Assembly (NCBI RefSeq): GCF_964355755.1
Contig: NC_092670.1
Location: 34,398,388-34,462,387, forward strand
Reading direction: 5' to 3'
DNA: 64,000 bases
Origin: Antedon mediterranea
Taxonomy: Eukaryota > Animalia > Echinodermata
The notes below the pieces were generated by a model that saw nothing but the letters and a program-made list of their open reading frames with translations, ran no database searches and was not told the origin of the DNA. Below, piece by piece: positions 37,345-61,784 of this stretch. Numbering within the stretch: the stretch's first letter is position 1; each line of letters begins with the position of its first letter. A program made the translations under genes and the position numbers.

Positions 37345-37932
37345 TTAATCATGGTTACTTACATACTCATAAACATTATTATTGTCATTTGCAGGTCTAC
37401 TATATATTCTATTACTATCTATCATCTGCGGTGGTCCGATGGGCTGAATATAGTCCGACTTCTTTTCATTTTGTTCGGATTCATTGGTCAAATTGAAGCT
37501 ACTGTAGCAATCATTTGTAAATAGCTCAATATGTTCCGTTTTATTTGTATGCATACTATCTAGGCCTACATTTTGTGAGAGAGGTTTCTTATCTGCTTTC
37601 TTTGCTCCCAATGCCTCTATTTGTATTCTTGTGGAAGGCTGATCTTCATCTTTAATGCCGTCTTTTCGTTGTTTGTCTGTTTTGTCATTTTTCATTTCAG
37701 TTTTTGACTTATAAACGTGGAATCTTGTCAGTACATACAGCAATACAATAATAACAACTAGCAACAGGATTCCAAGTGTTATGATGCTTAAATCTTTAAA
37801 ATCTTGATTGTAGTTAAGGTTCAGCTGTTGAGATACATCGTTTGATGAAATACATTTTGTTGGTCCAGTATATGTTCGATAATTGCTGGTTACCGTTTTC
37901 TGTGTTGACATACGAAGCTCGGCAGAGCTCAT
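37345..37932 (-). CDS. Array member A: ectodomain-less TM + tyrosine-tail protein (about 195 aa from ATG 37932)
   Basis: TM LSIITLGILLLVVIIVLLYVL; tail ELFTNDCY, SDYIQP, NRIY, VYEYV, homologous to neighbours. Decayed ectodomain remnants lie upstream (HTSDLVTFQV at about 37953-37982). Confidence 0.6.
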   Translation of the reverse strand: MSSAELRMSTQKTVTSNYRTYTGPTKCISSNDVSQQLNLNYNQDFKDLSIITLGILLLVVIIVLLYVLTRFHVYKSKTEMKNDKTDKQRKDGIKDEDQPSTRIQIEALGAKKADKKPLSQNVGLDSMHTNKTEHIELFTNDCYSSFNLTNESEQNEKKSDYIQPIGPPQMIDSNRIYSRPANDNNNVYEYVSNHD

Positions 37933-38285
37933 TTTTGTTGGCACTTAGACCTACTTGAAATGTTACTAAATCGGAAGTATGCTAATTTCTTTTACTTAAC
38001 CAACCACTTGGATGCTACAATTAGTGTATCTTACTGTAAAAACTCACAATGTTTCTTTTCCAATTAACATCCAATAAGTCTTGATCAACTCCAACGAAAC
38101 ACACAATAATTATGTTAAACTCATGATTACATTGGATCATATCTATCAAATTGTTATGCAGAGTCACAGTCCACAGCCGATGTACATGAGCTTGCATTCA
38201 GTTTTAAATTCCTCTTCTAAATTCTCTACACATACTATCCCAATCAAGGTACTGTATGTAACACAATATTCTTCTTCCGTATATG

Positions 38286-41005
38286 TGTAACAGGGTAACA
38301 GGTATGCTTATACCCAAATACTTGAATGATTTATCTGCTGAATCTGACTTGAATCTGAGAAACCTTGTGGGACCCATTAAAGTAAAAGCTGGAATGATAA
38401 GTGACCATGCTATAAATAGATGAGTCACCTCATCCAAGTGGCGGGAAAATGGTCATGAATATTTAGTGTATAATGTTTCAGTATGGGTCAGTTCATAAAT
38501 GGACAAGGGATTTTGTTAATTGATTTGCATTTTTAATAGTTTCTTTTTTTGTATAACCGAACTTTAAATTGATAATTACATGTGTATGACTCGAGTTACA
38601 ATACAATCGTTCTGTAAACTATGAAATAACGTTATGGTAAATGTATGTACCATCGGTTAAAAATTGTCATAGTACCCAACTGGGAATGGATGACACTTAC
38701 TAGTGCCTAGCCCAAAGTGAAGGTTTTCATCTCCTTCCGACTGGTTACTAGGTAAGCATCTATATTTTTATCTCTCTTAATTTTAGAATTGTTTTACTAT
38801 AGTTAATATAGTTGATTAGTTATTTGATGTTATACTATAGTTAATATAGTTGATTAGTTAATTGATTGTTACACTAGACACAACGCAATAGTAGCCTATA
38901 CTGTCGTTAATGATACGATCACTGATGTTATCTTAAATAGTAACACTGTTTTTGTTATATCTCCTTCCGACTGGTTACTAGCTTCAATAAAAGAATTTAA
39001 CTTTTCCAAACCAAGAACTGTCTCTGTGGATGATTTTATTGTGTTTGTGCCAGTGCTGCAGCTCCTGAAAATACTACGCGATAAAGCTACGACGCTAGTA
39101 GTACGAACCTGTTACATTTGGTGCCGTGACCAGGATTTGCTGTTCAGCCAGGAAGGGATCACTCTCAAGAAAGACTACGATAAGTGCTGATTAGTCTTTT
39201 CTTGAGTTTTAACCAGCCATTTGGAAAGATGTGGATCTTACTCAACCTTACGTCCCTGAAGCTGCAGTACCAGAATCTGCTAATACAATATCCATAGAAC
39301 AATAAGAAACACCATCTATCAACCCTGCTTCTGCCCAGGCATCTGTGGAACCGTCAGAAACTTCTCCTTCAACTGAGCATGATATCACTCCCGTCGCAGT
39401 CGTCATGGATCATACTGATGATGATAACTCCTCAGGAGAAACACGTTCAGAACCAACCTTAAGTCTCCGACGTTCGAAACGTGTAATTAAACCGCCAGAC
39501 CGATACGGCTTTATTTCTAAGTGGCTCTGGGGAACCCCTGCACTAACATTCCATGTGGGTTGTTTAGATGTTTGATTGTTTAAACTGTATTAATTTTGCT
39601 TGACACTTAACTTGTTTTTTTATATAATTATGTCTGAGAGAAGACAATTTTACTTGATTTTAATTTTAATCTCAATAGTTTAATTTGTTACCTTTATTGT
39701 ATACTGTATCTTTTGTATGATCATGTTTTTTTAACATACTTGTTTGCCATGTGTATGGCTTGTGTTATGTTGGTACATCACCTTGTGTTGGGTGGGATTG
39801 AACCTTCGAGTAGTAATCGCAGGATTTCGAGAAACTTGTGAAGTGTAAACGGGCACTTCTGTACACCGACTATTGTGGGGATGGCCATCCTTCAATAGTT
39901 TATCCATTTGGATAAATTTTTATTGGTTGTTTCTAATAATTCTGCATAACTTCTCTCATTGGTTCAATCAGGTACAGGTATGCTGTTGTGATACAACAGT
40001 TTGGTTTTTTTTATAAATGCCATTTAGTTAAGTTTTTTTATTTTTAGTTTTTTTATGTAATTCCCTATGATGTCATTTTCATTGTATAAATCGTGACTAA
40101 TGTACCAAGGTATTTAGGTTTAGGTTAATGAATTTGTATATCACTGAGATTTAGCAGATAAATGGGGGGTGAGTGTAACAGGGTAACAGGTATGCTTATA
40201 CCCAAATACTTGAATGATTTATCTGCTGAATCTGACTTGAATCTGAGAAACCTTGTGGGACCCATTAAAGTAAAAGCTGGAATGATAAGTGACCATGCTA
40301 TAAATAGATGAGTCACCTCATCCAAGTGGCGGGAAAATGGTCATGAATATTTAGTGTATAATGTTTCAGTATGGGTCAGTTCATAAATGGACAAGGGATT
40401 TTGTTAATTGATTTGCATTTTTAATAGTTTCTTTTTTTTGTATAACCGAACTTTAAATTGATAATTACATGTGTATGACTCGAGTTACAATACAATCGTT
40501 CTGTAAACTATGAAATAACGTTATGGTAAATGTATGTACCATCGGTTAAAAATTGTCATAGTACCCAACTGGGAATGGATGACACTTACTAGTGCCTAGC
40601 CCAAAGTGAAGGTTTTCATCTCCTTCCGACTGGTTACTAGGTAAGCATCTATATTTTTATCTCTCTTAATTTTAGAATTGTTTTACTATAGTTAATATAG
40701 TTGATTAGTTATTTGATGTTATACTATAGTTAATATAGTTGATTAGTTAATTGATTGTTACACTAGACACAACGCAATAGTAGCCTATACTGTCGTTAAT
40801 GATACGATCACTGATGTTATCTTAAATAGTAACACTGTTTTTGTTATATCTCCTTCCGACTGGTTACTAGCTTCAATAAAAGAATTTAACTTTTCCAAAC
40901 CAAGAACTGTCTCTGTGGATGATTTTATTGTGTTTGTGCCAGTGCTGCAGCTCCTGAAAATACTACGCGATAAAGCTACGACGCTAGTAGTACGAACCTG
41001 TTACA
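38286..41005 (+). mobile_element. Young non-autonomous LTR retrotransposon (Gypsy-derived, TRIM/LARD-like)
   Basis: LTRs 38286-39116 and 40174-41005 (TGTAACAGG...CCTGTTACA), apparently identical except one T; TSD TATG; PBS TGGTGCCGTGACCAGGAT 39119-39136 (tRNA-His type); PPT about 40156-40173; integrase-tail remnant LRRSKRVIKPPDRY. Confidence 0.95.
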
Positions 41006-43294
41006 TATGACACCACATAAAATCATAAGTGGTAATTAAAATAAAATTAGCTTTTCCTTCCTATTGTTCTTATAAGATAACTTTCTACTTTTGGGGGTTT
41101 TTGTATTCAGAAACATACTTCTTTGTATCTGTTGTTGCACTGGTTCTCGGGTTTTTTTCTAAGAGATGTTGCAACACTTTTCCAGCATTCGTCTTAAGTG
41201 CATCTCCTCCATCCATTTTTTATCTTCTTTTTTTAAAAATTGTATTGTATTGTGTAATGGTATTGGTGCGGAGCTAACAGCATTTATATCTTAAAACTGT
41301 GTACGTTATATTATAGATGATATATTATGTACTACATTGCTGCTCACAGGTGATCATACGTAAAACACGTCATACTATTTGTAGAATCATTAATATTTAT
41401 TTCTTAATAGCTTTTAAAATAAATTTGCTGTTGTTAAGAAAACATTAATTTAGCAATACATAGTAATTCCTTGGCTCCATAGTATCAGAAATAGTACATA
41501 TAGAAAAGTTTTGTTTTTACAGAATTAGTTATGATTTTAAAAGTCATTTGTAGAGGCATTACTATTTCTTTTAGTAGTTTTAAAAACTAAACTTATGACA
41601 AACAAAATCATACACTACTTACTTTTAACCATTTATTATGTTATTTTAAAAGTGAAAACATTATTTTTTTTCGGTTTTTCCCCTATGGCAATGAATAACC
41701 TATTCAAAATCTGATTTAATCAATCTTCATTTTCCATGTTTTTGGGGGACAATACATCTTTAAGACAAGCTGTTCTAAAATTCACTGTGTTCATCAACGT
41801 CATAAGTATTTAAAACAAGTATAGAAAAATGGGTAGCTTTAAGAAATACTATTATGCTAATATAATTTCTAATTTGATACGATTTATCAGAAAAGGAATT
41901 ACTGTGATACGAGTTACAGGTGGTACTGATCTATTATGATTTTTATTTCGTTTTATCTTGTATATAAATACATTGTATAATTCGAGTTGTAAAATGAAAA
42001 CAAACAAATGAAAATGAAAATCTCACAAATCCTTTACATATAAATATTTTAAAACGAGATAGATGATAATGATGATCATTGTCAAGTGTATAGAAAAATA
42101 TAAGAAAATTAATGAAAAAAGAAGGTGACACGGAATTCATAAATGTAAAAATGTTACTGATGAATTATAATGACATTTAGAATTAACAAAAATGTGTTAA
42201 ATTATATTATTTTATGTAATGACATGAGATAATATGAATGTGAATAAAAGTGGTGTTTGCGCCACAAAAAAGAGAAAAAAAAAGTATTAAAATAAAACAG
42301 TTTCAAAAAGTGGAGAGTGGAGTATTAAAACATTTATATAATAAAGATGACATTTTATAGCTTAGAGGTCTTTTTTATGTCTCCAAATATTAATACTTCA
42401 TTTGGGTTATTGACAATTTTATAATTATCTAAGGAAACCTAATTTGGCTACCTAAATTAAATACATTGTTACATGCAGTTTATAATTCAGAAACTATTTT
42501 TAGTTTGTTATGTAACCCAATATGTTCTTCCGTATATGACAAATAAAGCACTCATATGTACGAAAGCAGGCCTACTAGAAATCATAAACGTTAATTACCA
42601 TCATCCATTTCCGTCATTATTTTCATTGTAACATAACTCTAGATTTTTGTGTTTGTGTAAAGTTTTATTCAGAAATAATTTCCTTGGATAATTGTATTAA
42701 AATCATATTTTAGTCAATAATACTACTAATAATTAGTTTATTGATTTATTATATACATTACCGTTTTGTAATATGCGTTTTTCAATAATTGAAAATATAT
42801 TGAATAAGTTCAAATTCAAATTCAAATTCAAAAAGACATTTATTTTCCTCCATAGCAATACAATACAAAATAATAAACAGAAATGGTAAGGTATATTAAA
42901 AATGAAATAGATGATTGTTGGATATACAAAAGAAAAGTGAATTTAGATCCATTGATTTGTTAAAAGTCCTATTTTCAACAGTTTATAGACTTGTCCCAAG
43001 TCTGTATTTAATTTGTCTTTTTTATATTAGTTCACCAGTCGATGTTTCGATTTTTGTCTGAAAAATATACAGCTCGGGTATTATCGTATGAAACGCCATG
43101 TGGGTCAAAATATTTATCTTTTTTCTAATTTTATATTAAAATACAGTCTAGAAACTATACTGGGGATAAAGTACGGTACTAATTAAAGGATTCTGGTTCA
43201 GAATAGAAACGAACTAGGAATGCCTAGGTAGGCAGGCCTACAAGACGCATTTCTACATTCTAGCTATGAGTTTATTATCATTATGTTATAATAT

Positions 43295-46200
43295 ATCGGT
43301 ATATCTTTATTCAAATGACACAAATAGCCAATGGCTGAAACCGTAGTCGTACAATATTAAAAACAATCATGATAAAAACAGGTAAAAAAAAATAAAAATA
43401 AAGCAGATAATCAAAATAACATTACAAAACATTATTTAACAGTCTAGCCATAGTAGGAACAGGTGATTTCTTAAATCGCTCAGTTCTGCCAAACGGAATA
43501 CGAAGGAGGGGGCGAGACCGAAGGCCGACACCGAAGGCCGACATCATATTCGCGACAATGAGGGAACATATTCCGAAATATGTCAGCAGAGGCAAGAAGT
43601 TTCTCACCAAAAGACAACACCAGACCCACCCTCCTCGTCACAAGCGATGGGAGACCGACGATCTCGCACGCCTCTTCATACATGTGATCAGTCCCTAGTA
43701 TAATTCGAAGAGCTCGTTTCTGGATTCTCTCAATAGCACGAGACTTCTCCCCAGTTAGGTAACCATGCCACACAGGACAAGCATATTCTAACAAAGGTCT
43801 AATATAAGCTAAGTAAACATTAATAAGGTCATTCATTGGTGCATTGGCCTTTTTTAGAATGCATAATGTGAACAATTTTCTTGAAGCCCTACGTACGATA
43901 TCATTAACATGGAGATTCCATCTTAAGTCATTACTAATAGTAACACCTAGGAGTTTCATATGACCAACCACCTCAAGATCAACACCATTGATGGAGAAAT
44001 TGGGAGGAGGAACATCACGACGAAGGAAACTAATTTGCATAGAATTGCACTTAGGTAACATGTTATTATTGTTACTCCATTCGTTAAAGTCATCTAGTAA
44101 AGACTGCATATTTGAATTATCACCAATTCTATTCATCTCACTTAAAGTTAAATCATCCACTTATTTCCACCGTCTGCAGCTTTCTAAACAAGCATCATTA
44201 ATCAGGACTAGATGCCCTCTATTTTATTGGTTTACATAGCGACGATCTTAAGAATCATTTTAATTGACTAGATGGTTCTCGAATACATAATAATTTCAGC
44301 GTTAAAAAAACTGGCGATTTCAAATGTACGTACCGCAGGACAATAATACATGTCGTTTACAGGAACGAATAAATAGACAGTGATTTATGTACTCAACTAA
44401 AATTAGCACCCTGGGAATTACTTTCGAAAGAGAAACTTGTCACAAAATGAGACCAATTGTTTAAGTCAAATTTAAACAAACTTAATTTGTGTTTTGTATG
44501 TAATATTAGGGTTGAGGGATGGGGAAGAGGATGGGTGCAAAGAGGAACAATTTTTAAATATATTCTTTATCCATTTAGTAACGAAATATTAATTGTTTTC
44601 ATGTTTTACAAATAATATACCACTAAACACAGTAAAACATTGCGATGTAATACTTTGTTGAAACTATCACCGTCCAAGTCGATTGAAATAGTACAGTACA
44701 TGTAACGATACATCACTACGACGTGTATATGTTTATATAATGTAAAACAATTTGTGAAAACCACCTCTATTCGGGGAAAATCATAAATTCGATTTAATCG
44801 TCAATAAATATTAAATTATCTAACTCAACTTAATTAGTAGGCCTAATGGTTTTCAATTGTTTCTTAGAGCCAATTCATACTTAAGTTGGTTCCTACCCTA
44901 CCCACCAAAGTTGTTCTGCGTTTAGGGCATGTGATGTACCGTAGGCCTATTCTCTACTGGTTTTACAACCTTGAGGGAAGGGTGATGATGTGGGTGGTTT
45001 AACTGCAATAATAAAGATTTGTACATAATATACGGCGAGTGAAAACGCTAACTCATTATTCGTTTAAAAAAAATTATATCCAACCTCTGCAGCACAGATT
45101 GAAAACAAAAATTGATCGAATTTCGAGTATACAGTACTGTACTTGCCTTTACGACGCCTGAGGGAATAGACACTTGTGGAACAGAGATTGGAATGTTCCA
45201 TTCATCGCAAATCAATAAATTTGTATAAACGTATATTAAATCTATCAAAATAGTATTTTTTAAAGAAAATCGGCCTGTCTTCAACATTATGATGCTGTAC
45301 TCGAGCTGTTCAACCGGTTTTCAGCCATTAAAAACAATTATCGTAGGAGGAGATAGGAAAATGCGAAGCATCCTCGTATATTGTCTGCGGGTATTTTTCA
45401 AGACGGACATCCATTAGACAGTGTATACCACGATCGAAAAACACCCCTATTTGGGGCAAATCGTTGAACCTAAATTCGTTTTAATCGTCAATAACTAATT
45501 ATCTAACTTAATTTAATTAGTAAACAGGGTTACCATCAGGTGGTTAAAATCAGTACCGAAAGTAGGAACCAACTTTATATACCATCGAGTACAAATTCTA
45601 GAAGTAAGGCGCGATTTACCGAATTTTGCCCTTACGTAAATTTATATATAGATGAGGAAAAGAATAGGGCCTAATTTAGTTCCTTGAGGGACGCCGCAAG
45701 TAATTTGGGCAATAGAAGAAACTGAATTGTCGTGCTTGGTGTTGATAGTACGGTTAGTAAGAAAGCTGCAGACGGTGGGAATAATGGATCGTCTAACACC
45801 AATATCTATCATTTTACGAATAAGTACAGAATGATCTACATGATCGAAAGCCTTAGTGAAGTCGATGGTGCAAAGATTAACATACTTATTGCCCCCTCAA
45901 GGTCTTTAACAATCGAGTCAATCATGCTGACCAAGTAGTGGGTCGTTGATGCACCTTTTCTACTTCCAAACTGTTTTGAATCCAGTTTACCACTGGTATC
46001 TTCAACGATCCATTTCACAAGAAACGATTCGAAAACGCGTGCAAAAATGGGGGTCAATGAGATAGGTCTTAAATTATTACAACTACTAGCAGATTTAGTC
46101 TTAGGTAAAGGGATAATCGTCGCAGTCTTCCATGGGTCTGGGAATAATCCTTCTTTCAAAGCGAAATTAAATACACTGGTTAAAGGTGGAGCAATCTCAA

Positions 46201-48046: not shown

Positions 48047-48120
48047 TAATATGTTCTGCATGTTACTTTATTTCTAAGCAACCATATCCAATGTCAGCGG
48101 TACTCTGTATTACACTGCTA

Positions 48121-49356
48121 TTATACGTGCGCTTTAGTAATAGGCTGGAGATAGTCGTCCACTCTATCGTCCGATATTACATTCAAGCTACGGCCATAAC
48201 ATTCATTTGAAAATAGTTCAACATGTTCCATTTTAGTTATAGGCTTATTAGGTTTCTTATCTTGGTTTGCCCTTACTGTTGCACCGTGCCTACTTGTGGA
48301 AGGTTGGGCACAATAATCTTCAATGTCATGGTATACATGTTCAACTTGTTGCATGTTTGTACTCTTCTTCATAGATTGTGACAAGTTATTATCAGTTTGT
48401 TTGGCTCTCTCTACTTTCGTCTGTCTACCCGTAGGTGGTTTTACAAGTGTATTTTTCTTGCAAGATTCATCTGCTGACTTTGGTTTCACTGACTCTGGTT
48501 GTTTTTTTGTTGAATGTTGATCTGCATCATTGATAGACTGTTTTCTTTTAAGTTCATACAACAACAAAAGAAGAACAAATAGCAGCAGGATTCCAGTTGT
48601 AGTTGCAAGGATTATAATGACCAAATGTGATGTGTTCCATTTCGTTGGTAGATCATCCTTTAAAATTATTGCAGAACATATTTTTTCTGAAAGATTGGAA
48701 TCATATGTGGGATATAAAAAACAATAAAAGAATATACCATCTCCTGATTGAAAGCCTATAAAACTTTGATTAAAACTCATTGTGACCGAGGAATTAGGCA
48801 AATAGTAAGAACGTGTAATGTTATGTGATCCTTGAATCCATCCAATTGTGATTTCAGTTGCAAAGTTGTTGTCGTCCACACGATTTGAACTATAATATTG
48901 CAGCTTACATGGGATTGTTATTTTTTGTCCCTCTATAATGTTATCAACAAAGTCTTCACAGAGAAAATCCCATCCACTGTGAACCGTGTGTGTTCCATAC
49001 ACGCTACCTGAAGTAATCATGAAGTGTTGATTATCCTCGTCCTGACATGTGAATATTCCTGAATCATTGTTATTATTGAAAGATAGAAAGTATTGACAGT
49101 CTGCTTGAAAGTTTTGTACATAAACTGTTTTGTAGAAATATGATAGACCTACTGTAGAGCTTTCGGCGATGTTTCTTAAAACATTTAAGCTGTACGTTTT
49201 ATGTGATTCTATGATGTATATTGGTTGTCTGTCTCTCACAAAGTCCGTAAAGAAAAAATCAAACTCAACAAACTGTTCTTTTGCAGTTACATACCTGATA
49301 CACATCAAACTGATCACAATAAGACACAGATTAAAACACGGCATAGTGCGAACCAT
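48121..49356 (-). CDS. Array member B: intronless type I membrane protein, 2 Ig-like domains, Tyr-motif tail (411 aa)
   Basis: Signal peptide; CQYFLSF..DSGIFTCQ; IIEGQKITIPCKL..GWIQ..GDGIFFYC; TM; EHVYHDI, ELFSNECYG, DDYLQP. Confidence 0.85.
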   Translation of the reverse strand: MVRTMPCFNLCLIVISLMCIRYVTAKEQFVEFDFFFTDFVRDRQPIYIIESHKTYSLNVLRNIAESSTVGLSYFYKTVYVQNFQADCQYFLSFNNNNDSGIFTCQDEDNQHFMITSGSVYGTHTVHSGWDFLCEDFVDNIIEGQKITIPCKLQYYSSNRVDDNNFATEITIGWIQGSHNITRSYYLPNSSVTMSFNQSFIGFQSGDGIFFYCFLYPTYDSNLSEKICSAIILKDDLPTKWNTSHLVIIILATTTGILLLFVLLLLLYELKRKQSINDADQHSTKKQPESVKPKSADESCKKNTLVKPPTGRQTKVERAKQTDNNLSQSMKKSTNMQQVEHVYHDIEDYCAQPSTSRHGATVRANQDKKPNKPITKMEHVELFSNECYGRSLNVISDDRVDDYLQPITKAHV

Positions 49357-49479
49357 TACACTTCTGAGCAGTATCTGAAAAACTTATAAAATGAGACCTA
49401 CATACGTAATTGTTACGAAAGCTGGTAATAAATCAAACAACAGGCTCTCCCGATAGAATGAAGTGTGAAAACAGTAAGA

Positions 49480-49815: not shown

Positions 49816-51617
49816 TCATTTTCTGTTTAATTTTTTAAAATTTTATTGTATTGTGTAATGGTATTAGTGCGGAGCTAACAGCATGTATATCTTAAAACTG
49901 TGTACGTTGTATTATAAATGGTATATTATGTAATACATTGCTGTTCACGCGTGATCATACACACATTAAAACACGTCATACTATTTGTAGAATCATTAAT
50001 ATTTATTTCTTAACAGCTTTTAAAATAAATTTGCTGTTGTTAAGAAAACATTCATTAAGCAATATATAGTAATTCCCTGGTATCTGAAAAAGTACGTATA
50101 AAAGTTTTGTTTTTACAGAATTAGTTATTATTTTAGAACTATATTGTTTGTAGAGACATTACTATTTCTTTTAGTAGTTTTTAAAACTAAACTTATGATA
50201 ACAAAATCATACACTACGTACTGTCATTACAAAAGTTTGTAATAATACATAATACTTTCTTGGCTCCAGTCTATCAGAAAAACGAAGTGTAGAAGTTTTG
50301 TTTTTACAAATTTAGTTTAGTGATTTTAAACGGTACATATTGTTTGTAGAAGCACTGTTACAAATCTAGTTAATTTTTTTTTTTTACATTTCCATTATAC
50401 AATACAAACTATTATTACATTCGTTCTATACATTAGATTGATTATTAAACAGGAATAGAAACATATTTTCACTAAATTATCAGAAAGAGATAATATTAAT
50501 TATCAGAAAGTGGTAACATTATCAAATATCAAATCAATATTTTAAAACATATTAGTGGACGATCAAGTCCAACAACAAACACGTTGTACACCATACAATA
50601 ACACGTACACAACAAATAAAAATACACAATTTGTGTTACATGTATTTGCAAAAACCTAAATAGAATAAATATATTATTTTAAGTAATACTAATACATGTT
50701 ATATATTATATTGCCATAAGTTAACTTAGCTATATTGTCCCCCTTAAAAAATGTTTTCTTACATTTTTTTTAATGTCACATAATAGTCATTCACTTTGAC
50801 CAAAAATTGGATCGAACAAAAAAGTTCTTAAAAAAAACCTGTAATTTAAAGCAAAAAAATAGTTTAATTGCCAATGGGTTTTTGGTTAATTTTAACCATT
50901 TATTTTATCATTTTATAAGTGAAAAAATTAATAATTTCCATTTTTTTCTTATGGAAGTGATTAAAACTACAAAATAATCTATTCAAAGTCTGATTTTATT
51001 AATCTTTATTTTTCATGTTTTTGGGGGACAATACATCTTTAATAGTTCGGATGTGCTTGCAAATCTTTTAAACGTTTAAACATTATGACATTATGACATT
51101 TGTTTGAATTGTCTTATACAATATCCAATTTTGTATTCGATTTTAATTAATCTAGTCAATATTTCTTGTACTGTATCCATGAACACTTTTCTTTTCAGTG
51201 TAGATATTAAGTATCAATGACATATAAGTTTTAAGTTTCATATCAGATCGTAAACATACTTTTAAGTATGTTTACAAATTTTGTTTTAAACAAGTTAATT
51301 TTGATTGATTTAATATAATAATAATGGCATTAGAAGAAATATAATTTGGCATATGTCACTGTACAGTATATGATTCATGCGAATATTAAGGGTTGTTTTT
51401 TTATTGTTTTTTTTAATGCTTTTGGGTCATTTTCTTTTATTTACCAAGATTATATGATTGCAGCTCTAACGATACAAGCATATTTTGTCTGTTTACATTT
51501 ATTAAATTATGCATTTTAAATTTCCAATGCAATCACTATTTTTAAGATATTATTTCTAAGTAACCATCGTCATTTTCATCGGCACTGTATATTTTATTGC
51601 TGTGCAACTGTGTTGTT

Positions 51618-53348
51618 TTAATGGGCTGAAGGCAGTCGTCCACTGTCGGATTTCTTTTTTTCATTGGTCATGTTGTTAAAGTTATAGCCATAACATTCAT
51701 TTGTAAAAAGCTCCTTTATATTTGTAGGCCTAATATTTACCTTTTGTGGTTCCGTATCTGCTTGCTTCGCTCTAACAACTACTTTCCCTTGTCTACTTGT
51801 TTCAAGTTGTTTTACTGTTGTGTTCCATTTCGTAAATTTAGACAATTCTTCGTCTGGACTCACAGCTGCTACCTGTCTTCTCCTGGGACGATGATCATGA
51901 TCCAGTTTAATACTATAATATATATCCTCAGGTTGTTCCACTTTTGTATCTTTCTTTGTAGATTTGGAGGATTCATTTTCTGCTGACTTTAGCTTCATAT
52001 TCTCAGTCTGTCTACTCCGGGGTCTACTCACAGAAGGTTGATCGTCGTTAATGCTGTAATATATGTCTTCAAATTGTGTTACTTTTGTATTTTTCTTCGT
52101 AGATTTGAATGGTTCATTATCTGCTGACTTTTCTCTCATTTCTTCTACCTTTCTACTTGTTGAAGGTTGGTCATCTTTAATGTCATGTACGTCAGGTGTT
52201 TTCTCATTTTGAATTACAGTGTTTGACATTTTTGACCTTTTATGTATGTAAAGTAATAAAAATGCAGCAAACAGAAAGAGAATTCCAGTTGTAGTTGCAA
52301 GAATTTGAATGATTACATCTTTATCGTAGTTGACTTGGTTGTAATTTCTCGGTACAGCATCTGTTTGGTCGTTGAAAATGACTGTTTTATCCAGTGGCAC
52401 ATCATTTACTGTGAATTCTACAGACTCTGAGGTATGTTGATTGTCACTACTCACCAGACATTGCACAGTGTAATGACCAGCGGACAATCCTTTAAAGCAC
52501 ATCTCAGTGCCAGTAGCATCCATGTTACCCTTTCCATTCAATTTCCAGTTGTAAGTCTTTTTACCAACTCCAACCGTAGCTAAACAATAAAAACAGTGTT
52601 CGTCATCAGTATCATTGTTCAAAGTCTTGATTTTTGCCATTAATTGTGGGTAAACCTTTAGAATTATAGCACTGCACTCATTTCTATAATACCACATTCC
52701 CACTCGAAAAATACAATAAAAGAAAATACCATCTCCCGATTGGAAGCCTTCTAATGTGTAGTTTAACCTTACGGTCTCTGAGGCATTGTATACATAATAA
52801 TACTGTGTAATTTTGTGTGATCCTTGGATCCATCCACTTGTTATTTCATGTGCGTTGTCGTCGTACGACCACGACCACGTACGTATCAGCGTACACGCAG
52901 TTATTACTTCTTCGCCCTCTATAATATACGGTTTTAAATCTTCACAGGCAATTTCCCAGTTGAGAAATTCTTGAGATGTACCTCCATATTTGTCACTTGA
53001 AGTAATCATAAAGTGTTGATTATCCTTATTTTGACATGTGTATATTCCTTCATCATTTTTCTTATTGAAAGATAGAAAGTACTGACAGTTTACTGTCAAG
53101 TTTTGTTCGTGAAATAGTTTGTAGTAATATGCTGATGTATAGCTACTAACGATGTAATTTAAAACGTGTCCAGTTAAGTTGTACGTTATTTGTGATGGTA
53201 TTATATTTAGTACATGTTGCGGATGACTATAAGATGAAATGTAAAAATCAAACTTAATAATCTCTTCTTCTGCAGTTACATATTTCAATATTAGCATACA
53301 GATCGCAGGAAGACACAGATTAAAACACGACATAGTTTGGACAACCAT
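51618..53348 (-). CDS. Array member C: intronless type I membrane protein, 3 Ig-like domains, Tyr-motif tail (576 aa)
   Basis: Signal peptide; DEGIYTC; IEGEEVITAC..W..GDGIFFYC; CFYC..YNWKLNG..GHYTVQC; TM; EDIYYSI x2; ELFTNECYG. Confidence 0.88.
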   Translation of the reverse strand: MVVQTMSCFNLCLPAICMLILKYVTAEEEIIKFDFYISSYSHPQHVLNIIPSQITYNLTGHVLNYIVSSYTSAYYYKLFHEQNLTVNCQYFLSFNKKNDEGIYTCQNKDNQHFMITSSDKYGGTSQEFLNWEIACEDLKPYIIEGEEVITACTLIRTWSWSYDDNAHEITSGWIQGSHKITQYYYVYNASETVRLNYTLEGFQSGDGIFFYCIFRVGMWYYRNECSAIILKVYPQLMAKIKTLNNDTDDEHCFYCLATVGVGKKTYNWKLNGKGNMDATGTEMCFKGLSAGHYTVQCLVSSDNQHTSESVEFTVNDVPLDKTVIFNDQTDAVPRNYNQVNYDKDVIIQILATTTGILFLFAAFLLLYIHKRSKMSNTVIQNEKTPDVHDIKDDQPSTSRKVEEMREKSADNEPFKSTKKNTKVTQFEDIYYSINDDQPSVSRPRSRQTENMKLKSAENESSKSTKKDTKVEQPEDIYYSIKLDHDHRPRRRQVAAVSPDEELSKFTKWNTTVKQLETSRQGKVVVRAKQADTEPQKVNIRPTNIKELFTNECYGYNFNNMTNEKKKSDSGRLPSAH

Positions 53349-54092
53349 TACAACTTATAAGTAGAAACTAAACTTGTGAAAAACATACGTACTGTTGTTA
53401 CGAAAGCTTGTTTTGGCTCCATGGTGTCAGAAAAAGAAAAAGAAAGTAAATAAGTTTTGTTTTTAGGCTACACATTCAGTTTTGAATTTTGATTTTTTTT
53501 CAACTTCTATAATCAATGCCGTCACTCACAGCCAATCAGACTGGTTGTTAAACAAGTAGGCTCATTGTATAAGCTTATACATTTTACTCTTGGATTAATA
53601 TAGTAATGGGTATAAGAAAAACAGCCACTATTGACCAAATATCTTTTTAAAGAAGTTTTCTTTTAAGTACATTTGTCAGTTATTAGAGTAAGATACATCT
53701 TATTACTCGAACTGATTACAAAAAATCAGTAATGCATATATATATATATATATATAGTCTTACTATAGCACCACATTTTTCTAAATATCAATGCGTCGAA
53801 ATTTATATTTTAAAAAGCGCAACAATATTCTTATATTTTTTCACATAATGTAACATATGAAATGCAATGGGGACTTCATCAATATTCAGGGTATGTAATT
53901 TGAATCAAGCTTTAAAAATGCCAACTCACCCACCGAGATACGGTAGTTTGCTCAAAACAAACTTTTGGGTGATAACACAAATTTAATTATGATTCCTTCC
54001 AACTCATACGCACAAATATTTATTTAAAAAAAGAAAAATAACAATGCTACTAACCATACATTATAGTGACCAATGCAATTGTCATCGGCACT

Positions 54093-55920
54093 TTATATCT
54101 TATTGCAATATAATCGTGTTGCTTTGATGGGCTGGAGATAATCATCCACTTCTGATTTTTCATCTTCTGATATTATTTCTAAGTAACCATCATAATTGTC
54201 ATTAGCTTTATATATTTTATCGCTATATAGCTGTACTGTTTTGATATGCTGGAGGTAATCATCCACCTTATCTTCTAGTTTCTCTGTTCCATGTGTTTGG
54301 GATTCATTGATCACATTGAAGCTACACCCATAGCATTCATTTGTAAACATCTCACTGTGCTGTGTGTTATTTGTATGCCTATCATATACTGTGGATATGT
54401 GATGTTCGTTTTGTAGGCCTACTTGCTTTGCTCTCACTATTCTCATAAGTCTCCTGGTTAAAGGTTTATTCACATCGTCTTCAATGCTATGATATACGTC
54501 TTCCGGTTGTCCAACGTTTGCAATTTTCTTCGTAGACTGAAATGGTTTTGTATCTGTTTGCTTAGACCTCACCACTTCCATTTGTATACTTGTTGATGCT
54601 TTTCCATTTTTCTTTTCAAATTTGCATGGTTCATCTCTTGTCTTAGTAGGTCTCACGTCCTCTCCATCTCTAATTGTTGAACGTTGATCATCTGTAATTT
54701 CATGTACATTTACTGTTCTTTCATTTTTCATTACAGTTTTTGACAGTTTACCTCTGATTGTTTTCAGTATATAAAACAATAAAAGTAAAACAAATATCAG
54801 CATCATTCCAGTTGTAGTTGCAAGTATCATAATGATTAAATCTTTATCGTGGTTGGCTTTTTTGAACTTCTGAGATGTATCCAGTGTTGAATTTGTTGGT
54901 ACAGCATCTATTCGATCGTTTTCCGTTGTCGCTTCGTCTGTTGTTGGTATACCGTTATCACAGGAACTCGTGTTTGTCTCTGTTGGAATGATAACATGTA
55001 CTTCAAATTCTACAGAATCTGAGGTATGTTGATTGTCACTACTCACCAGACATTGCACAGTGTAATTACCAGCGGACAATCCATTAAAGCACATCTCAGT
55101 CCCAGTATCATCCATGTTGCTTTTCCCATTCAGTGTTCCAGTTGTAAGTCTTTTTACCAACTCCAACTGTAGCTACACAATAAAAACATTGTTGTTCTCC
55201 ACCAGTATCTTTTTTCGAAGTCTTGAGTGTTGCTTTTAATTTTGGATAAACCTTCAAAATGATTGTATAGCACTCACTTTTAATTGAACTAGGATATTCA
55301 ATATCGGCAAAACAATAAATGAATATACCATCTCTTGGTTGAAAACCTTTAAAAGTTTGTTTATGATACATTGTTGTCACAGTGGTATTGAGATTATAAG
55401 ACTGTGTGATCTTGTGTGACCCTTGGATCCATCCAAATGTTATTTCATATGAAGAGTCGTCAAAGGAATACCTACGTTTCAGTTTGCATGTAGTTATGTT
55501 TTCATCTCCCTCTATAATGTACTCTGCTAAATTTTCACAACCAATTTCTATATTGTTAGTTAAATAATTGGGTGTAATTACATGTATATCACCTGAAGTA
55601 ATCATAAAATGTTGATTATCCTTATCTTGACATGTGTATATTCCTTCATCATTGTTGTTATTGAAAGATAGAAAGTAATGACAGTCTACGGCTTTTTGAT
55701 CGGAAATTCGTTTGTAGTAATATGATAATGTTTGGGTATTAACGATATAGCTTAAAACTTGTCCAGTTAGGCTGCAAGTTTTGTTTGATAGTATGATATT
55801 TAGAGGTTGATCCCCAGAATCCCAAAAATGTAAATCAAACACAACAAGATTTTCTTCAGTAATAAAATTTCTGACAATCAGCAAACTGATAATCACAAGA
55901 TAAAGATTCAAACACAACAT
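54093..55920 (-). pseudogene. Array member D: single +1 frameshift splits an ~608-aa receptor
   Basis: TGG-A-ACA-CTG-AAT-GGG at about 55136; deleting one A joins ORFs 55108-55920 and 54093-55166 colinearly with member C. A sequencing error is possible. Confidence 0.75.
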
Positions 55921-56118
55921 CGTGTTCGTAGAACAATTACAACGTATGAGCAGTTTATATTTTAAAAACTTGGATAAACATACGTACTGTTACGAAAGCT
56001 TTTAATATACAATAATTTCTTGGCTTCATGGTATCAGAAATAGAAAGTACAGCAGTTTTGTTTTTACAAATTTGGTTATTATTTTACACATAAAGCCTGT
56101 TTGCTTGGGTCTCACTAC

Positions 56119-56234
56119 TATTACGGCCATAACTGCGTTGAAACATCGGTTCTCGTAAAAGCACCGAAGTTAAGCTTGGACCCGGTTGCGTTCTGGATGG
56201 GAGACCGTCTGGGAATCGCGGCGGGTGCTGTATA
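56119..56234 (+). pseudogene. Degenerate 5S rRNA-derived sequence (pseudogene or SINE3 head)
   Basis: TACGGCCATA..TCTCGT..CGAAGTTAAGC..TGGATGGGAGACCGTCTGGGAAT..GGGTGCTGTA matches the 5S layout with many substitutions; no poly-T terminator. Confidence 0.75.
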
Positions 56235-56551
56235 TACCACAGAGTTATGGTATAATGATAATATCGGACAAGCATACCAAAACTATCAATATGCCTATAA
56301 TCCGAAATTCCTCAGTTTCCAGTTAAGCTTGAGGACCAGAATAAACACATTTTTTTTAACTACTTTCGTCAGTATACTTTCATTAATACTGGTATATACA
56401 TCTTCAGTCTGTTCTATATTAAGTTCTATCGGAAATTATGACTTTGGTGTAACAGCTTTTGCCTTTTTATTTGTTAAAGGTTGTCACAGATGTTTTTTTA
56501 TGGTTAGTTAATTTTGTATATTCTATCGCATATGGTACACTACTGGTCAGT

Positions 56552-58822
56552 TTATACTCTCGTCTCGTATATTTTATTGCTATAAAGCATTGTTGTTTTG
56601 ATGGGCTGGATGTAGTCATCCACTCTACAGTCGGATTTCTCATGTTCGCATAATTGAGATTCATTTGTTATATTGCCACAGCCATGAAATTCACTTTTAA
56701 GTAGCTCATGTTTCCGGATTTTATTTTTACTAGTTACTTTTTGCAGGTTAGGTCGCTCATCTGATACCGTAGCCACTTTGCAACATGGTTGATCATCTTC
56801 ATATTTAATGCTGTAATTGTATACGTGTTCAAGTTGTTCTACTTTTATATTTTTCTTCGTATATTTAGACGATTCAATATTTGCTAGGTCGTCCATTACC
56901 ACTTCCGTCTGCCTACTTGTTGAACATTCATAACTCTCGTCCTCGTCTTCAGATTCTATGTTTGTATTTATCTTGTGAAATGTGGATGATTTGTTAATTG
57001 GCTTCAGCCTCACAGTCTGTCTAAATTTTGAATTTTCATCATCTTCAATGCTGTAATAGATTTCTTCGTGTTCTACTACTTTCAAATTTTTCTTCGTAGA
57101 TTTAGACGAATCATTATTCGCTTGTTTTGGTTTTACAACCTCTCCTTGTCTAATTGATGATGTCTGATTATCATCATCTTTAATGCTATAATATATATCT
57201 TCACATTCTTCTATTTTAGTATTTTCCGTCGTAGACTCATTATCTGATGAGCTTAGCCTCATATCCAGTCTACTCGATGAATGTTCATTATCTGTTTGAT
57301 TAGTTCTCACGAATTTCGCTTGTCTATTTGTTGAACGATGATGATCATCATCATCTTTAATGGCATGTAGTACGTTTGTGTGTTGATTTACCTTTGTTTT
57401 GTCATTTTGCATTACAGCGATTGACTTTTCCTCATGAAATCGTTTCAGTACAAAAAGTAATACACACAAAACAGATAGCAACAAGATTCCAAGAATTATG
57501 ATGCTTAAATCTTTTAAATAGTGATCACAATTGACTTCGCTGAAATGCCGAGATGTATCCGTTCGATGGTTAACAGTTATCGTTTTGTCTGTTGCCATAC
57601 CGTCATCTCCAGAGCTCGTTTGTGTCTTTGTTGTATCCCTTACTTCATCTTCCACAGTATTTGATGTACGGTGGTTGCCAGTTTCGGTTTTTGTTGTTGC
57701 TATACCGTAATTCCTAAAGCTCGTTGGTTTTCTTGTTATATCATTTACTCGAACTTCCACAGTATTCGTTGTGTGCGAATTTGAAGTACGATGCTTGTCT
57801 GTTGCTGTTTCCTCTGTTGCCATTGCATAATCCCATGAAGTAGTTGTTCTCTCTGTTTGTATAATATTATTGGTTACTTTAAATTCTACAAACTCAGATG
57901 TATGATGATTTGCAGTAATCGCAAGACATGTAACAATGTAATTACCAGGAGACAGTCCATTAAAGCACATTTTGGTGCCAGTATTATCCACTATGCCCTT
58001 TCCATTTAAAGTCCAGATATACGTTGGTCTATTTTGGCCAACTCTAACCGTTGCTACACACGAAAAGCATTGTTCGTCGCCGGTGTCCAAAGACTTGATA
58101 TTTACGACTAATTGTGGGTAAACCTTTAAAATTATTGCATAGCACTTTTTACTTGTACGGTACTTGGATGAAGGATAACAATAAAAGAATATACCATCTC
58201 CAGATCGAAAGCCTATAAAACTTTGATTAAAACTCACTGTGACCGAGGTATTATGCAAATAGTAAGAACGTGTAATGTTATGTGATCCTTGAATCCATCC
58301 AATTGTGATTTCAGTTGCAAGGTTGTTGTCGTTCACACGATATGAACTATAATATTGCAGCTTACATGTGATTGTTATTTTTTGTCCCTCTATAATGTTA
58401 TCAACAAAGTCTTCACAGAGAATTTCCCATTCATTGTGAATCAAATTTATTGTTCCATACACGTTACCTAAAGTAATCATAAAGTGTTGATTATCCTCAT
58501 TCTGACATGTGTATATTCCTTTATCATTGTTATTATTGAAAGATATAAAGTATTGACAGTCTACAGCTTGAAAGTTTTCTTCATAAAATGTTTTGTAGAA
58601 ATATAATAGGCCTTCTGTATAACTTTTAACGATATAGCTTAAAACTTGTCCATTTAAGCTGTACGTTTTATGTGATTGTATGATATTTATTCGTCTGTCT
58701 ATTCCAGAGTTCATAAAATGCAAATCAAACTTAACAAGCTGTTCTTTGGAAGTTACATACTCGATACACATTAAACTGATCACAAGAAGACACAAATTAA
58801 AATACGACATGGTTCGAATCAT
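56552..58822 (-). CDS. Array member E: intronless type I membrane protein, 3 Ig-like domains, repeated Thr-rich stalk, long Tyr-motif tail (756 aa)
   Basis: Signal peptide; the same three Cys/Trp-patterned domains; 3 stalk repeats; TM; EDIYYSI, EEIYYSI, EHVYNYSI, DDYIQP, NKIY. Confidence 0.88.
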   Translation of the reverse strand: MIRTMSYFNLCLLVISLMCIEYVTSKEQLVKFDLHFMNSGIDRRINIIQSHKTYSLNGQVLSYIVKSYTEGLLYFYKTFYEENFQAVDCQYFISFNNNNDKGIYTCQNEDNQHFMITLGNVYGTINLIHNEWEILCEDFVDNIIEGQKITITCKLQYYSSYRVNDNNLATEITIGWIQGSHNITRSYYLHNTSVTVSFNQSFIGFRSGDGIFFYCYPSSKYRTSKKCYAIILKVYPQLVVNIKSLDTGDEQCFSCVATVRVGQNRPTYIWTLNGKGIVDNTGTKMCFNGLSPGNYIVTCLAITANHHTSEFVEFKVTNNIIQTERTTTSWDYAMATEETATDKHRTSNSHTTNTVEVRVNDITRKPTSFRNYGIATTKTETGNHRTSNTVEDEVRDTTKTQTSSGDDGMATDKTITVNHRTDTSRHFSEVNCDHYLKDLSIIILGILLLSVLCVLLFVLKRFHEEKSIAVMQNDKTKVNQHTNVLHAIKDDDDHHRSTNRQAKFVRTNQTDNEHSSSRLDMRLSSSDNESTTENTKIEECEDIYYSIKDDDNQTSSIRQGEVVKPKQANNDSSKSTKKNLKVVEHEEIYYSIEDDENSKFRQTVRLKPINKSSTFHKINTNIESEDEDESYECSTSRQTEVVMDDLANIESSKYTKKNIKVEQLEHVYNYSIKYEDDQPCCKVATVSDERPNLQKVTSKNKIRKHELLKSEFHGCGNITNESQLCEHEKSDCRVDDYIQPIKTTMLYSNKIYETRV

Positions 58823-59869
58823 TATAACTCGTTAGCCGTTCCAAAAAATTGTTACCAAAGCTTACGTGATGATTCCTTTTCGTGTTCATCGTTAGATATG
58901 AAAGTACGCTTCTAAACTACTTTAACTATATTGGCTTAAATTTCACATGATAAGCAATCAGAAATAGAAAGTAGTCATGTTTACAGATCTTTTATCTTTA
59001 TTCATATACTGTTATTGTCTTAAATCAAAATAAAAAATCTACTAAATTATACAGTATTATCATATGTATATAGATAACTGTACAGGTGGCGCTATATTGT
59101 GTTCAAAATAGAGAAACAATCTGTAGAGAGAAATTCGGATTTGTCCAAACTGTAAAAAATTCTGTCCAGGATGCCATAGTAAACTTAAACAGTCATGTAA
59201 ATACAAAAGGATCGATATTTGCAAATTCTTTTGACAAAATCACTGGCCAAAACATTACTTTTTTAAAATTCGATTATTATCGTCAAAAAGAATAAGTTCG
59301 AAGTGTGTCCATTTTTTGACAAAATATTGATTGTTATGCGCTAACATTGCATCATCAATTTATGATGCCATAGTAACTAATTGCTATAACCTAGAAGGTG
59401 GGATAAGGTGTGTAGTTCAGATAGATTATACTGTACATGATTACTAAATATCCAGAGAGGTTTAGGACAATTCTTAGGGGAGGGGGAAATAGCAATTGTA
59501 TACACATGCCTGGATGATGGTAATCAGCACTTATTAACATTCAGTGTTACATACGGTACATGATTACTAAATATCCAGAGAAGTTTAGGAACATTCTTAG
59601 GGGAGGAGGAAATAGCAATTGTATACAAACCGTAGAATGTAAGAGTTTGTGTACCATACTGGTGAATCATTCTAAAGGTTTACCAACAATTTGAAACTTT
59701 GAAAAGACACTGATGGTAGCGAACATTGCAGTGTGGCGGTTAGAGAATTTGATAAAAGACGTCTAATTTGAATGGAAATGGAAATGAAAAGATACGTTAT
59801 AGTGTCTGATGAATTTGTACAACTTTTAATAAACTTAATTTCTTTCGAATTTTAAAAGTAAAAACAACA

Positions 59870-61784
59870 ATGAACTCTAGTGATGTTGGCGTGTCAACAG
59901 AGAACATGGTGACCGGCACTTATCGAACAAAATGTAACTCGTCAAACGATATATTGAGCATATTCAATTACGATGAATATTTAAAAGATGTTGTCATTAT
60001 AATACTTGGAATCCTGTTGCTGGTTGTTATTATTGTATTGCTTGGTGTACTGAAAATATTCTACAATAATAAATCAAAAATGGGAATCAAGAACAAAACA
60101 AAAGTCAAACACCGAAGAGACGGCTTTACAGCAGATGATGAAGATCAACCTTCTCTAAGGAAACATAGGCCTACAGAAGCATTGCGATTAAAGCAAACAA
60201 ATAAGAAACCTCTCTCACAGAAAGTAGGCCTAAATAGTAGGCATATAAATCAAACAGAACAAGTTGAGCTATTTACAAATGATTGTTACGGCCACAGAGG
60301 CGCAGCCAGCAAAGAATTAAAGGGGGGGTCAACCAAATATGTGAGTATTTTGCGAGCGAAGCGAGCAACCATGGGCTGGGGGCCAGGGGGCCGCCAAGGG
60401 CCCCCGGTCGGGGTCCAGGGTCCAAGCTTTGGCGGTCTAGCGCAATCTAGATCATTTGAATCGGTTTACGCACACACAAATATGACAATGTTAACACTAA
60501 TAAACTGAAACAAAGAAAACAAAAAACAACTCTCATTTTCATTACAGAAAATTTTTATATTCCAGGCTGCCACAGACAAACACTTTTTTTCTTGCTTGTT
60601 TGTTGATTTGTGTAGAGAGGCTGTAAACTCAGAGGAGGAATTATTTGAATTCCTCCCTTTTCACCATACAAAAGTTGCATGAAATGAACGTAGAGTTACA
60701 AAAGTTTGAAAAAATAAATTAGAATGATAGCATGGAGTGATATTATTAAATGAGAACCGTAAGTTTAGAGTTCATACACTGTGCAAGTCCAAGAAGCTAT
60801 CTTGGCTCCGTGTGTATGTGAGACGCTTATCATACCCAGTACATACAATATTTTGTTTAAAAATATACCTATTTTGTTCGAATGTATAGTATAGGTGATA
60901 GCTTATACATAATTGTAATAACTAACTTCTAAATTATTATCATACATTTTACGTTAGTTACTATAACGGCGCTCTAGACATCGCGTGATGCATCTTTAAA
61001 CACATAAGTTTGGAACATTCTTCTTGGCTTGGAGACAGAATTCGCGAATGACATTCTCTGTATTAATGTTCATGTTAAAGTGTATGTTCATGAGGCACAG
61101 TCCCGAAAGCTGCTCATAAGACATGTGATTTCGCAAACAGGTTTTCGTTCTCCACAACGTCGAAAAACTCCACTCAGCTTCAGCAGACGTTACGGGCATA
61201 GGCCTACGCGATTAGAAGAAGTGCACGCACATTCGGGAACACATCTGGATCCGCTAATTTTACACAGTCGCTTCCATCACTGAAGCTCGGAATGAAGATG
61301 TTCGTGTCTTGGCAGATCATCGTACCAAATTCAAGTTCCTTGAAGACTTCTTCAACATTACACTTCACGATAGACTCGGGTGCTACGCCAAATATTTTAA
61401 AGCATGGCCTGTTATCGGCAGAAAAACGGGTTTTTAACTCGGTTTGTAAATGATCAAGAAGTTGATTTGGTAATACTGCTCGGTAGTAATCTTCCACAGT
61501 ATCTCCAGGATGATTTGATCTGTATTGTTGTCTCATGTTTTTATTTATTTTTTTCTTTAAAAAAAGGGAGGGTCAGGACCCCGTGACCCCCCCCCCCCCT
61601 CCCCCCACTTGCTGCGCCCCTGGGCCACACTAGTTTCAATGTAACCAATGAATCTCAAATAAATGAAAAGGAGTCGGACTACATGCAACACATTGAAAGA
61701 ACGCAGAGAAATAACAATATAATATATAGTACAGATGACAACAACGATGATGATTATGATTATGTAAATATAAATATGGCCTAA
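59870..61784 (+). pseudogene. Array member F: ectodomain-less TM + tail ORF interrupted by a hAT element
   Basis: ORF runs to ELFTNDCYGH, then resumes in frame after 61622 as TSFNVTNES..SDYMQH..IIY..DYDYV..* (stop 61782-61784). Decayed ectodomain upstream (IVYTCLDDGNQH about 59495; IILKVY about 59666). Confidence 0.7.
60295..61622 (-). mobile_element. Internally deleted hAT DNA transposon
   Basis: TIR CAG(A/G)GGCGCAGC; dimerisation-domain remnant PVTSAEAEWSFSTL..KT.LR..M...LSGL.L..IH on the minus strand; flanking duplication GGCCA. Confidence 0.85.

Follow-up and report, generated by a model that had tools for sequence, protein, structure and literature searches.

Introduction

Among described receptor families, a close counterpart to the locus considered here is the Alr family of Hydractinia (Alr1-Alr38), a cluster of single-pass receptors with numerous pseudogenes. 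The receptors have one to three atypical immunoglobulin (Ig) domains with additional disulfides, and their tails contain tyrosines, in many cases within an immunoreceptor tyrosine-based activation or inhibitory motif (ITAM or ITIM); each domain has its own exon, the core Cys pair is missing, and an Fn3-like spacer has six invariant cysteines (PMC9546547). An echinoderm example of receptor expansion is provided by the sea urchin Toll-like receptors (TLRs), for which PMC3367398 reports 253 sequences, 26% pseudogenes and positive selection in the ectodomain. The comparisons below draw on these two sources and on PMC11999971. The stretch analysed here (the window, 64,000 nucleotides) comes from the crinoid Antedon mediterranea (contig NC_092670.1, positions 34,398,388 to 34,462,387 of the forward strand), and an earlier note, made from its letters and open reading frames, had proposed that it holds a tandem array of intronless Ig-like receptors with tyrosine-motif tails.

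Six paralogous loci, called A to F, are found in the window. The explanation favoured here, to which a probability of roughly 0.55 is given, is that the family encodes single-pass surface recognition receptors with two or three predicted Ig domains, which bind a variable outside ligand through the outermost domain and signal through tyrosine motifs in the tail. Judged from sequence, this is an unnamed receptor family of the Ig superfamily (IgSF) that is restricted to crinoids in the data searched, as the earlier note had supposed in calling it lineage-specific. Lineage-specific clusters of Ig receptors are known in several invertebrates, so the kind of family is not new; its intron-free coding regions are unusual for Ig receptors, in which one exon per domain is the general rule.

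Organization of the locus

All six loci lie within 37345-61784 of the window, on the minus strand except for F (Table 1), and their similarity is far above chance (tBLASTn E-values of 1e-52 to 1e-107, 46-72% identity), which bears out the proposed tandem array. Copies C to E define a three-domain order, with a signal-like segment followed by the domains D1, D2 and D3, a stalk, a membrane helix and a tail. The N-terminal hydrophobic signal-like segment, the conserved Cys/Trp pattern and one strong membrane helix are shared by B, C, D and E, and the coding regions of these four have no intron, all of which had been noted before; the 5' untranslated part may still contain one. The count of four full-length members has to be revised, as only E is unbroken. 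Its stalk of 115 amino acids (aa) is Ser/Thr-rich (32% S+T), and its tail of 297 aa has 12 tyrosines and three acidic-IY repeats and has lost the FxNxxY motif. In D, the first frame ends before the membrane helix because of the one extra base in D3, so that the 5' frame (55108-55920) gives a 270-aa product lacking the helix, and the 3' frame (54093-55135) holds the remainder of D3, the stalk, the membrane helix and the tail. This extra base is missing from about half of the contig depth at that place, and the contigs concerned may represent paralogues or the other allele. Copy C has a short stalk and a tail with two EDIYYSI repeats and FTNECY, and a frameshift near 51645 puts the last ~33 family tail residues into another frame (51542-51643). 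B has no D3, and its juxtamembrane region follows directly on D2.

The two short copies, A and F, are 77% identical in nucleotides over 137 codons. A consists of a short N-terminal piece, the membrane helix and a complete tail (FTNDCY, DYIQP, NRIY, VYEYV), and has neither a signal peptide nor an Ig domain. Decayed D3 DNA adjoins both copies upstream; the remnant before A reaches a local score of 69 against D3 of copy D (maximum of 40 in 300 shuffles), and the one before F a score of 82 against D3 of copy C (maximum of 48 in 300 shuffles), each sharing ~52% identity with intact D3 and carrying many frameshifts. The earlier description of A and F as truncated therefore stands, but the additional fragments that it listed were not recovered, since profile searches of the window found no extra coding fragment beyond the 3' piece of F.

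In both A and F, a Met stands at the same position right after the D3 remnant, with an A nucleotide at -3, and is followed by an open frame, which in copy A runs 195 codons to the normal family end. When neutral evolution is simulated with indels ignored, the frame of A escapes stops in 2% of runs at a rate of 0.156 substitutions per site and in 0.07% at 0.25. Against this stand the ratio of nonsynonymous to synonymous rates (dN/dS) between A and F, which is 0.82 (95% interval 0.51-1.44), the D3 remnants, which cannot be aligned to each other, the present interruption of F and the young long terminal repeat (LTR) element just upstream of A. A could be a recent casualty, the last exon of a spliced gene or an adaptor that lacks an ectodomain, and A now, as F before the insertion, may act as a signalling partner of the latter kind.

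Non-coding DNA is also shared between copies. Apart from the similarity between the upstream regions of A and B (Table 1), a short block upstream of A (41455-41539) recurs upstream of D, and a conserved block of 100-150 bp is found before C (53335-53465), before D (55924-56086), twice before B (50078-50350) and once before A (41372-41541), which makes it a candidate for the promoter of these genes or for a 5' untranslated exon. No clear poly-A remnant of the kind that marks retrocopies was seen at the copies.

Ectodomain architecture and predicted fold

The assignment to the IgSF, which the earlier note had made from motifs, is supported by several lines of evidence. A profile of seven ectodomains aligns collinearly, in one stretch, with Ig1-3 of NCAM2 (E 4.3e-4 among 177,635 Protein Data Bank sequences), pairing DxGIYTC of D1 with the F strand of Ig1, the Cys-Trp-Cys of D2 with Ig2, and the Cys and Trp of D3 with Ig3. 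The next matches were CEA (E 0.025), a phage decoration protein (0.038) and Dpr2 (0.29), and the same search with a four-sequence profile gave E 0.17. Pfam Ig_3 matches D3 of copy E at E 1.7e-4, under its curated cut-off, and is the only family called on the whole open reading frames (for copy E, at E 0.025). In a language-model atlas, nine of the ten rows shown for the ectodomain of E are Ig clusters (0.90-0.92), scores which are weak because the recognition value of 1866 is below the guide value of 2300; D1 alone has Ig or V-set neighbours at 0.88-0.90.

Fold predictions with AlphaFold2, built on four sequences, were made for the whole ectodomain and, in a second job, for D1-D2 alone. The D3 model, with a predicted local distance difference test (pLDDT) of 58-85, matches a bacterial Ig domain (Z 10.2), d3 of CD22 (Z 10.1; root-mean-square deviation 2.6 over 89 residues) and Dscam1 (Z 9.9), and D2 is modelled as a beta-sandwich at a pLDDT of about 50, with assorted Ig-like and beta-sandwich matches at Z up to 9. 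The model of D1-D2 alone has a mean pLDDT of 38, and Foldseek found nothing for it at E 0.001 or better. At the level of residues, D1 keeps the F-strand Cys only, the other invariant Cys standing 17 residues before it, and its C-terminal strands align to NCAM2 Ig1 and CEA. The Cys-Trp-Cys core is present in D2 with 58-62 residues between the cysteines, and the D-G-x-x-Y/F-x-C spacing of this domain presumably resembles the CD80-like C2 pattern; in D3 the core Cys, Trp and Cys are present, the cysteines being 42-45 apart and the F Cys shifted to Y-x-V-x-C. Both D2 and D3 have a further pair of conserved cysteines, which likely form extra disulfides. The most variable columns adjoin indels in predicted loops, consistent with the conserved framework and variable loops described before.

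Profile comparison detected no internal repeat among D1, D2 and D3 (probability under 1%). Between D3 and the helix there is only a variable, Ser/Thr-rich stalk of 0-115 residues, with no common cysteine pattern, and the hydrophobic cores of all six membrane helices are uncharged. The ectodomain is thus predicted to consist of Ig folds, with moderate confidence for D3, low confidence for D2 and, for D1, by sequence alignment only.

Cytoplasmic tails

FxNxxY, which we take to resemble the FxNPxY signal of phosphotyrosine-binding (PTB) domains and endocytosis, is present in six of seven tails (A to F and that of an Antedon homologue), the one from which it has been lost being E. Copies B, C, D and E contain an acidic unit, E-[DEH]-[IV]-Y-[YH]-x-I, which in C and E recurs every 45-47 residues, and a D-Y-[LIMV] motif lies close to the tail end. 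EEIY is a preferred Src-kinase site, and pY-x-x-I binds SH2 domains. The tails had been called acidic, but overall they are not (D+E 12-19%, K+R 14-22%), the acidity being local to the tyrosines. A match in F that resembled an immunoreceptor tyrosine-based switch motif was rejected as transposon read-through.

Selection and exchange between copies

Among B, C, D and E, codon likelihood gives a dN/dS of 1.11 for D1 (p=0.66 against 1), about twice that of D2, for which it is 0.49 (p=0.0008 against 1; range 0.37-0.49); D3 has a dN/dS of 0.33 (C to E). At a synonymous distance (dS) of up to 0.8, no Cys or Trp position of the family has been lost from D1-D2. The dS between B and E is 0.16 in the ectodomain and 0.93 in the tail, and informative sites for B+E are 25:3:2 in D1, 30:0:1 in D2 and 13:12:18 in the tail; because the two copies are close in the ectodomain and distant in the tail, parts have been exchanged between copies. 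With its frameshifts, insertions and part-swapping, the family undergoes gain, loss and reshuffling of the birth-and-death type, as had been proposed.

Relatives and taxonomic range

A profile scan of 1.84 billion protein representatives returned 125 matches at E 0.001 or better, only three of which match D1: XP_071950092.1, XP_071957072.1 and an unnamed 133-aa fragment, all found with the four-sequence profile and later included in the profile used for per-domain scoring. The two named proteins are uncharacterized proteins of A. mediterranea, the first of 499 aa with the full layout (~35% identity, E 6e-57) and the second of 249 aa (E 3e-41). Both are true homologues, with the same D1-D2-D3 cysteine pattern and the GIYTCQ, GWIQG and GIFFYC motifs, and XP_071950092.1 likewise has a signal segment, a membrane helix, FTNECY and DDYV; they differ from the cluster in being only 35-40% identical and in lying on two different large contigs. 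Pfam calls no Ig family in either. That the layout and the FTNECY motif are kept at such identity in XP_071950092.1 counts in favour of recognition receptors. No branch was starred in an ectodomain tree that included the homologues.

The other 122 matches are mostly long repeat proteins, and in 121 of them the best stretch overlaps D3. Under 1% Cys is seen in 103 of the 125, the prokaryote-type motif G-G-x-x-P-Y-x-Y-x-W in 80, and the relatives of one of the 122 belong mostly to Bathyarchaeia. No single domain of the 122 scores above 30 bits, a value without significance in a library of that size, and D1 is matched by none of them, so that these matches are read, on sequence scores, as generic Ig likeness and not as transfer; a horizontal origin of D3 was rejected on the per-domain scores. 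In further searches, none of 718 candidates from a word-index protein search with residues 1-330 of C belonged to the family, the four-sequence profile found one of 7,708 longer proteins, a multi-repeat Ig/PKD protein and no family member, and the family profile matched 0 of 479 metagenome-contig and 0 of 203 viral-contig stretches, which are weak negatives. No published description of the family was found in the literature searched, outside which most subscription papers and supplements lie.

Sequencing runs indicate that the family has members elsewhere. Over 51500-59000, four runs of one sample, probably the source of the window, contain 95-97% of the sampled words and three runs of a second organism 26%. 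In the latter, an orthologue of E (56315-58304) has 80 different letters in 1,998 (~96% identical), and the 3' part of D has 29 in about 980. Two D2-D3 junctions seen in run X1 lack a counterpart in the window even when up to three mismatches are allowed, and the family therefore extends beyond the window, with more copies. Over the conserved bins of the ectodomain, contig depth adds up to about ten times that of a single copy, a figure not used as a copy count, just as dips in coverage were not taken to mean absence. Run X1 also has one contig at single-haplotype depth (154) over the tail and stalk of E (56380-58280), with no second similar contig in several bins; E may be on one haplotype only. 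None of the runs recorded as RNA contained the stretch, and the short contigs of run X8 (guessed to be RNA) on E, at a depth of 2.5-5, were rejected as a sign of expression, as non-coding DNA was covered too.

Interpretation

For recognition receptors of this layout we infer the ligand, the kinase and the tissue. The ligand of the outermost domain would be variable and non-self (a microbe, a parasite or another individual), and it is its non-self nature that would explain the turnover. Once the receptors cluster, the E-[DE]-I-Y and D-D-Y sites in the enzyme-less tail would become substrates of a Src-type kinase. SH2 proteins would dock at the phosphorylated sites, and FxNxxY would recruit a PTB protein or the endocytic machinery, with relay of the signal or uptake of the cargo as the outcome. 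Tail repeats of ~45 residues would vary the number of sites.

Several observations weigh against this explanation. Only one of the six copies is unbroken and full-length. D1, the domain that would bind the ligand, has a pLDDT of 22-40 in both predictions, so that no fold was obtained for it, and of the motif evidence for an Ig domain offered earlier, the F-strand DxGIYTC stands, but a B-strand Cys or C-strand Trp is not conserved in D1; the low atlas recognition value points the same way. The canonical motifs ITIM and ITAM, tested as [ILVS]xYxx[ILV] and Yxx[LI]x6-12Yxx[LI], are found in 0 of 7 tails (A to F and the Antedon homologue), and the assignment of tail motifs to Src-type kinases, SH2 and PTB partners is putative. 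The signal for diversifying selection, which the earlier note had inferred, is not robust. In D1 the site model M2a beats M1a (p=1e-5, and 0.0014 and 0.02 after trimming three or five codons around gaps), but the D1 dN/dS does not differ from 1, and in two of three trims positive selection is outperformed by a neutral model that allows a fast class; the signal in D2 is gone on trimming (p=0.92), and the site models use only four sequences, one of them frameshifted. For these reasons, diversifying selection in D1 is suggested at most. Finally, the 3' part of D differs from that of the second organism by 16 replacement and 4 silent codons and a changed stop codon (23 of the 29 differences listed), a ratio of 1.1, as expected without selection.

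A rather unlikely alternative is that these proteins serve non-immune cell-cell recognition or adhesion, either by self-binding (as in NCAM, nectins, Dscam and Alr) or with a gamete partner, diverging to keep identities apart. Adhesion-type IgSF proteins are indeed the nearest in sequence (NCAM2, CEA, Dpr2) and fold (Dscam1), nectin-1, CD155, CD22 and Siglec-5 are among the fold matches of a model that is confident only in D3, and fast change of the outermost domain fits variant-specific homophilic binding of the kind described for Alr1 and Alr2 (PMC9546547). These matches, however, are generic Ig matches at 11-25% identity, and long tails whose repeated motifs carry as many as 12 tyrosines, together with the frequent loss of genes, are more in keeping with signalling receptors under turnover than with structural adhesion. 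Crinoids, moreover, are solitary animals, which weakens allorecognition of the colony type.

It is likewise doubtful that the cluster consists mostly of decaying spare copies of a retroposed or intron-less ancestor, under relaxed constraint, with one or two working copies at most. Five of the six copies are frameshifted, shortened or interrupted, the dN/dS of D1 is 1 within error, and both the 3' part of D and the A-F comparison look close to neutral, but D2 is under purifying selection, every Cys and Trp position of D1-D2 has been kept, E is open over 752 codons and has its orthologue in a second species, and the frame of A would seldom have stayed free of stops by chance. A viral or prokaryotic origin with domestication in crinoids is very improbable, since the D3-centred matches and the phage decoration protein on D3 that speak for it either sum many repeats or are outweighed by the collinear three-domain match to an animal IgSF protein (NCAM2), the similarity to viral folds is generic (TM-score no higher than 0.31 by query length), and the cluster lies next to a PHF3/DIDO1 gene of the host and to ordinary transposons.

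A bolder form of the recognition-receptor explanation, speculative on present evidence, is that crinoids have built an immune system of their own from an intron-less Ig gene, in which variable three-domain receptors reshuffle ectodomains against tails, the tyrosine code (FxNxxY and repeated acidic-IY) is neither ITAM nor ITIM, and selection keeps ectodomain-less paralogues as transmembrane adaptors, so that receptors and adaptors would both stem from a single gene family. Should the tails prove to signal with neither ITAM nor ITIM, and A to function as an adaptor, deuterostomes would have a further, independently evolved form of receptor-adaptor tyrosine signalling. With no introns in the coding regions, genomic DNA suffices to amplify and type the genes, and polymorphism, copy number and selection are cheap to test.

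Genomic surroundings

The window is eukaryotic DNA of 34% G+C, and the gene before the cluster is 74% identical to the PHD finger protein 3-like protein of the feather star Anneissia japonica, which, taken with the Antedon homologues, puts the host among the crinoids. Several mobile elements lie among the copies. The LTR element upstream of A has TGTAACA...TGTTACA ends and a duplicated TATG target. Its first LTR is followed by a tRNA primer-binding site (presumably for tRNA-His) and its second is preceded by a purine tract, and the interior of ~1,050 bp has no long frame. The DNA transposon in F contains a broken frame that we take to resemble the hAT C-terminal region, a likeness unconfirmed by Pfam. 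Between E and D, the segment with the 5S rRNA match, which has a summed contig depth several hundred times the single-copy level in two organisms, is a candidate 5S-derived short interspersed nuclear element. Of the two overlapping frames beyond F, the 199-aa frame has a 94% identical partial duplicate at 62858-63045; neither has a Pfam match, the second has no relative in viral contigs, and they are possibly part of a mobile element. The minisatellite at 21365-22226 yields spurious repetitive open frames.

Table 1. Receptor copies and other features of the window, with positions counted from its first letter
Feature	Position	Strand	Description
Copy A	37345..37932	-	195-aa open frame from Met
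Copy B	48121..49344	-	407 aa from Met at 49344; D1, D2, membrane helix, shortened tail
Copy C	51542..53333	-	571 aa, stop at 51618; D1-D3, membrane helix, tail
Copy D	54093..55920	-	broken in D3 by one extra base near 55136
Copy E	56552..58810	-	752 aa, sole unbroken three-domain copy
Copy F	59870..61784	+	inverted, A-like: Met, membrane helix, tail split by DNA transposon (interrupted ~60295-61621); 3' piece at 61626-61784
Decayed D3 remnant	37945..38127	-	adjoins A upstream; stops and frameshifts
Decayed D2-end/D3 remnant	59640..59860	+	adjoins F upstream
Upstream region of A	38127..41763	-	block-wise 77-86% identical to upstream region of B; interrupted by the young LTR element
PHF3/DIDO1-type gene exons	14498-31327	+	directly before the cluster; SPOC domain 29681-30064 (E 9e-21)
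Young non-autonomous LTR element	38286-41005		two ~831-bp LTRs, 99.8% identical
Broken long interspersed nuclear element	43480-47563	-	endonuclease and reverse transcriptase frames, between A and B
5S rRNA match	56119-56350		Rfam 43.9 bits, joined to a further repeated segment
DNA transposon	60295-61621		in the tail of F; short inverted ends, duplicated target
Two overlapping frames	63120-63991	+	199 aa, acidic; 103 aa, helical-looking
Degenerate minisatellite arrays, long	21365-22226 and 33337-36479

Comparison with known systems

The genes of vertebrate three-Ig receptors are multi-exon, and the inhibitory ones use ITIMs. Nectins/CD155, CD22, Siglec-5, CEACAM and NCAM2 Ig1-3 give the best sequence and fold matches to the crinoid proteins, which differ from them in their low identity (11-25%) and in the absence of any orthology signal. 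The vertebrate paired receptors, to which the earlier note had likened the family along with Alr, resemble it in function only, because its tails have no canonical ITAM or ITIM, and unlike the ITAM/ITIM paired receptors it has no charged residue in the membrane helix.

The short copies A and F invite comparison with the transmembrane adaptors LAT, PAG/Cbp and NTAL, which likewise combine a short N-terminal piece with a single helix, flanked C-terminally by basic residues, and a tail of tyrosine motifs. Unlike these adaptors, A and F arise from full receptors by decay of the ectodomain, and the likeness is one of description only.

With Hydractinia Alr, the crinoid family shares clustering, a single-pass Ig layout, turnover and tyrosine tails, but it differs from the description in PMC9546547 in that signal, D1-D3, membrane helix and tail are all in one frame in C and E, D2 and D3 retain Cys and Trp, a Ser/Thr-rich stalk stands in place of the Fn3-like spacer domain, and no crinoid tail has an ITAM or ITIM; the Alr analogy likewise holds at the level of function only. 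No Alr protein is among the 10 of the 125 profile matches whose names were looked up. Within echinoderms, the sea urchin TLRs (PMC3367398) are a comparable receptor expansion, with simple exons, about a quarter of pseudogenes and, in their case, selection in the ectodomain; they have a leucine-rich repeat ectodomain and a TIR tail, of unrelated sequence, so that what the two families have in common is their mode of evolution.

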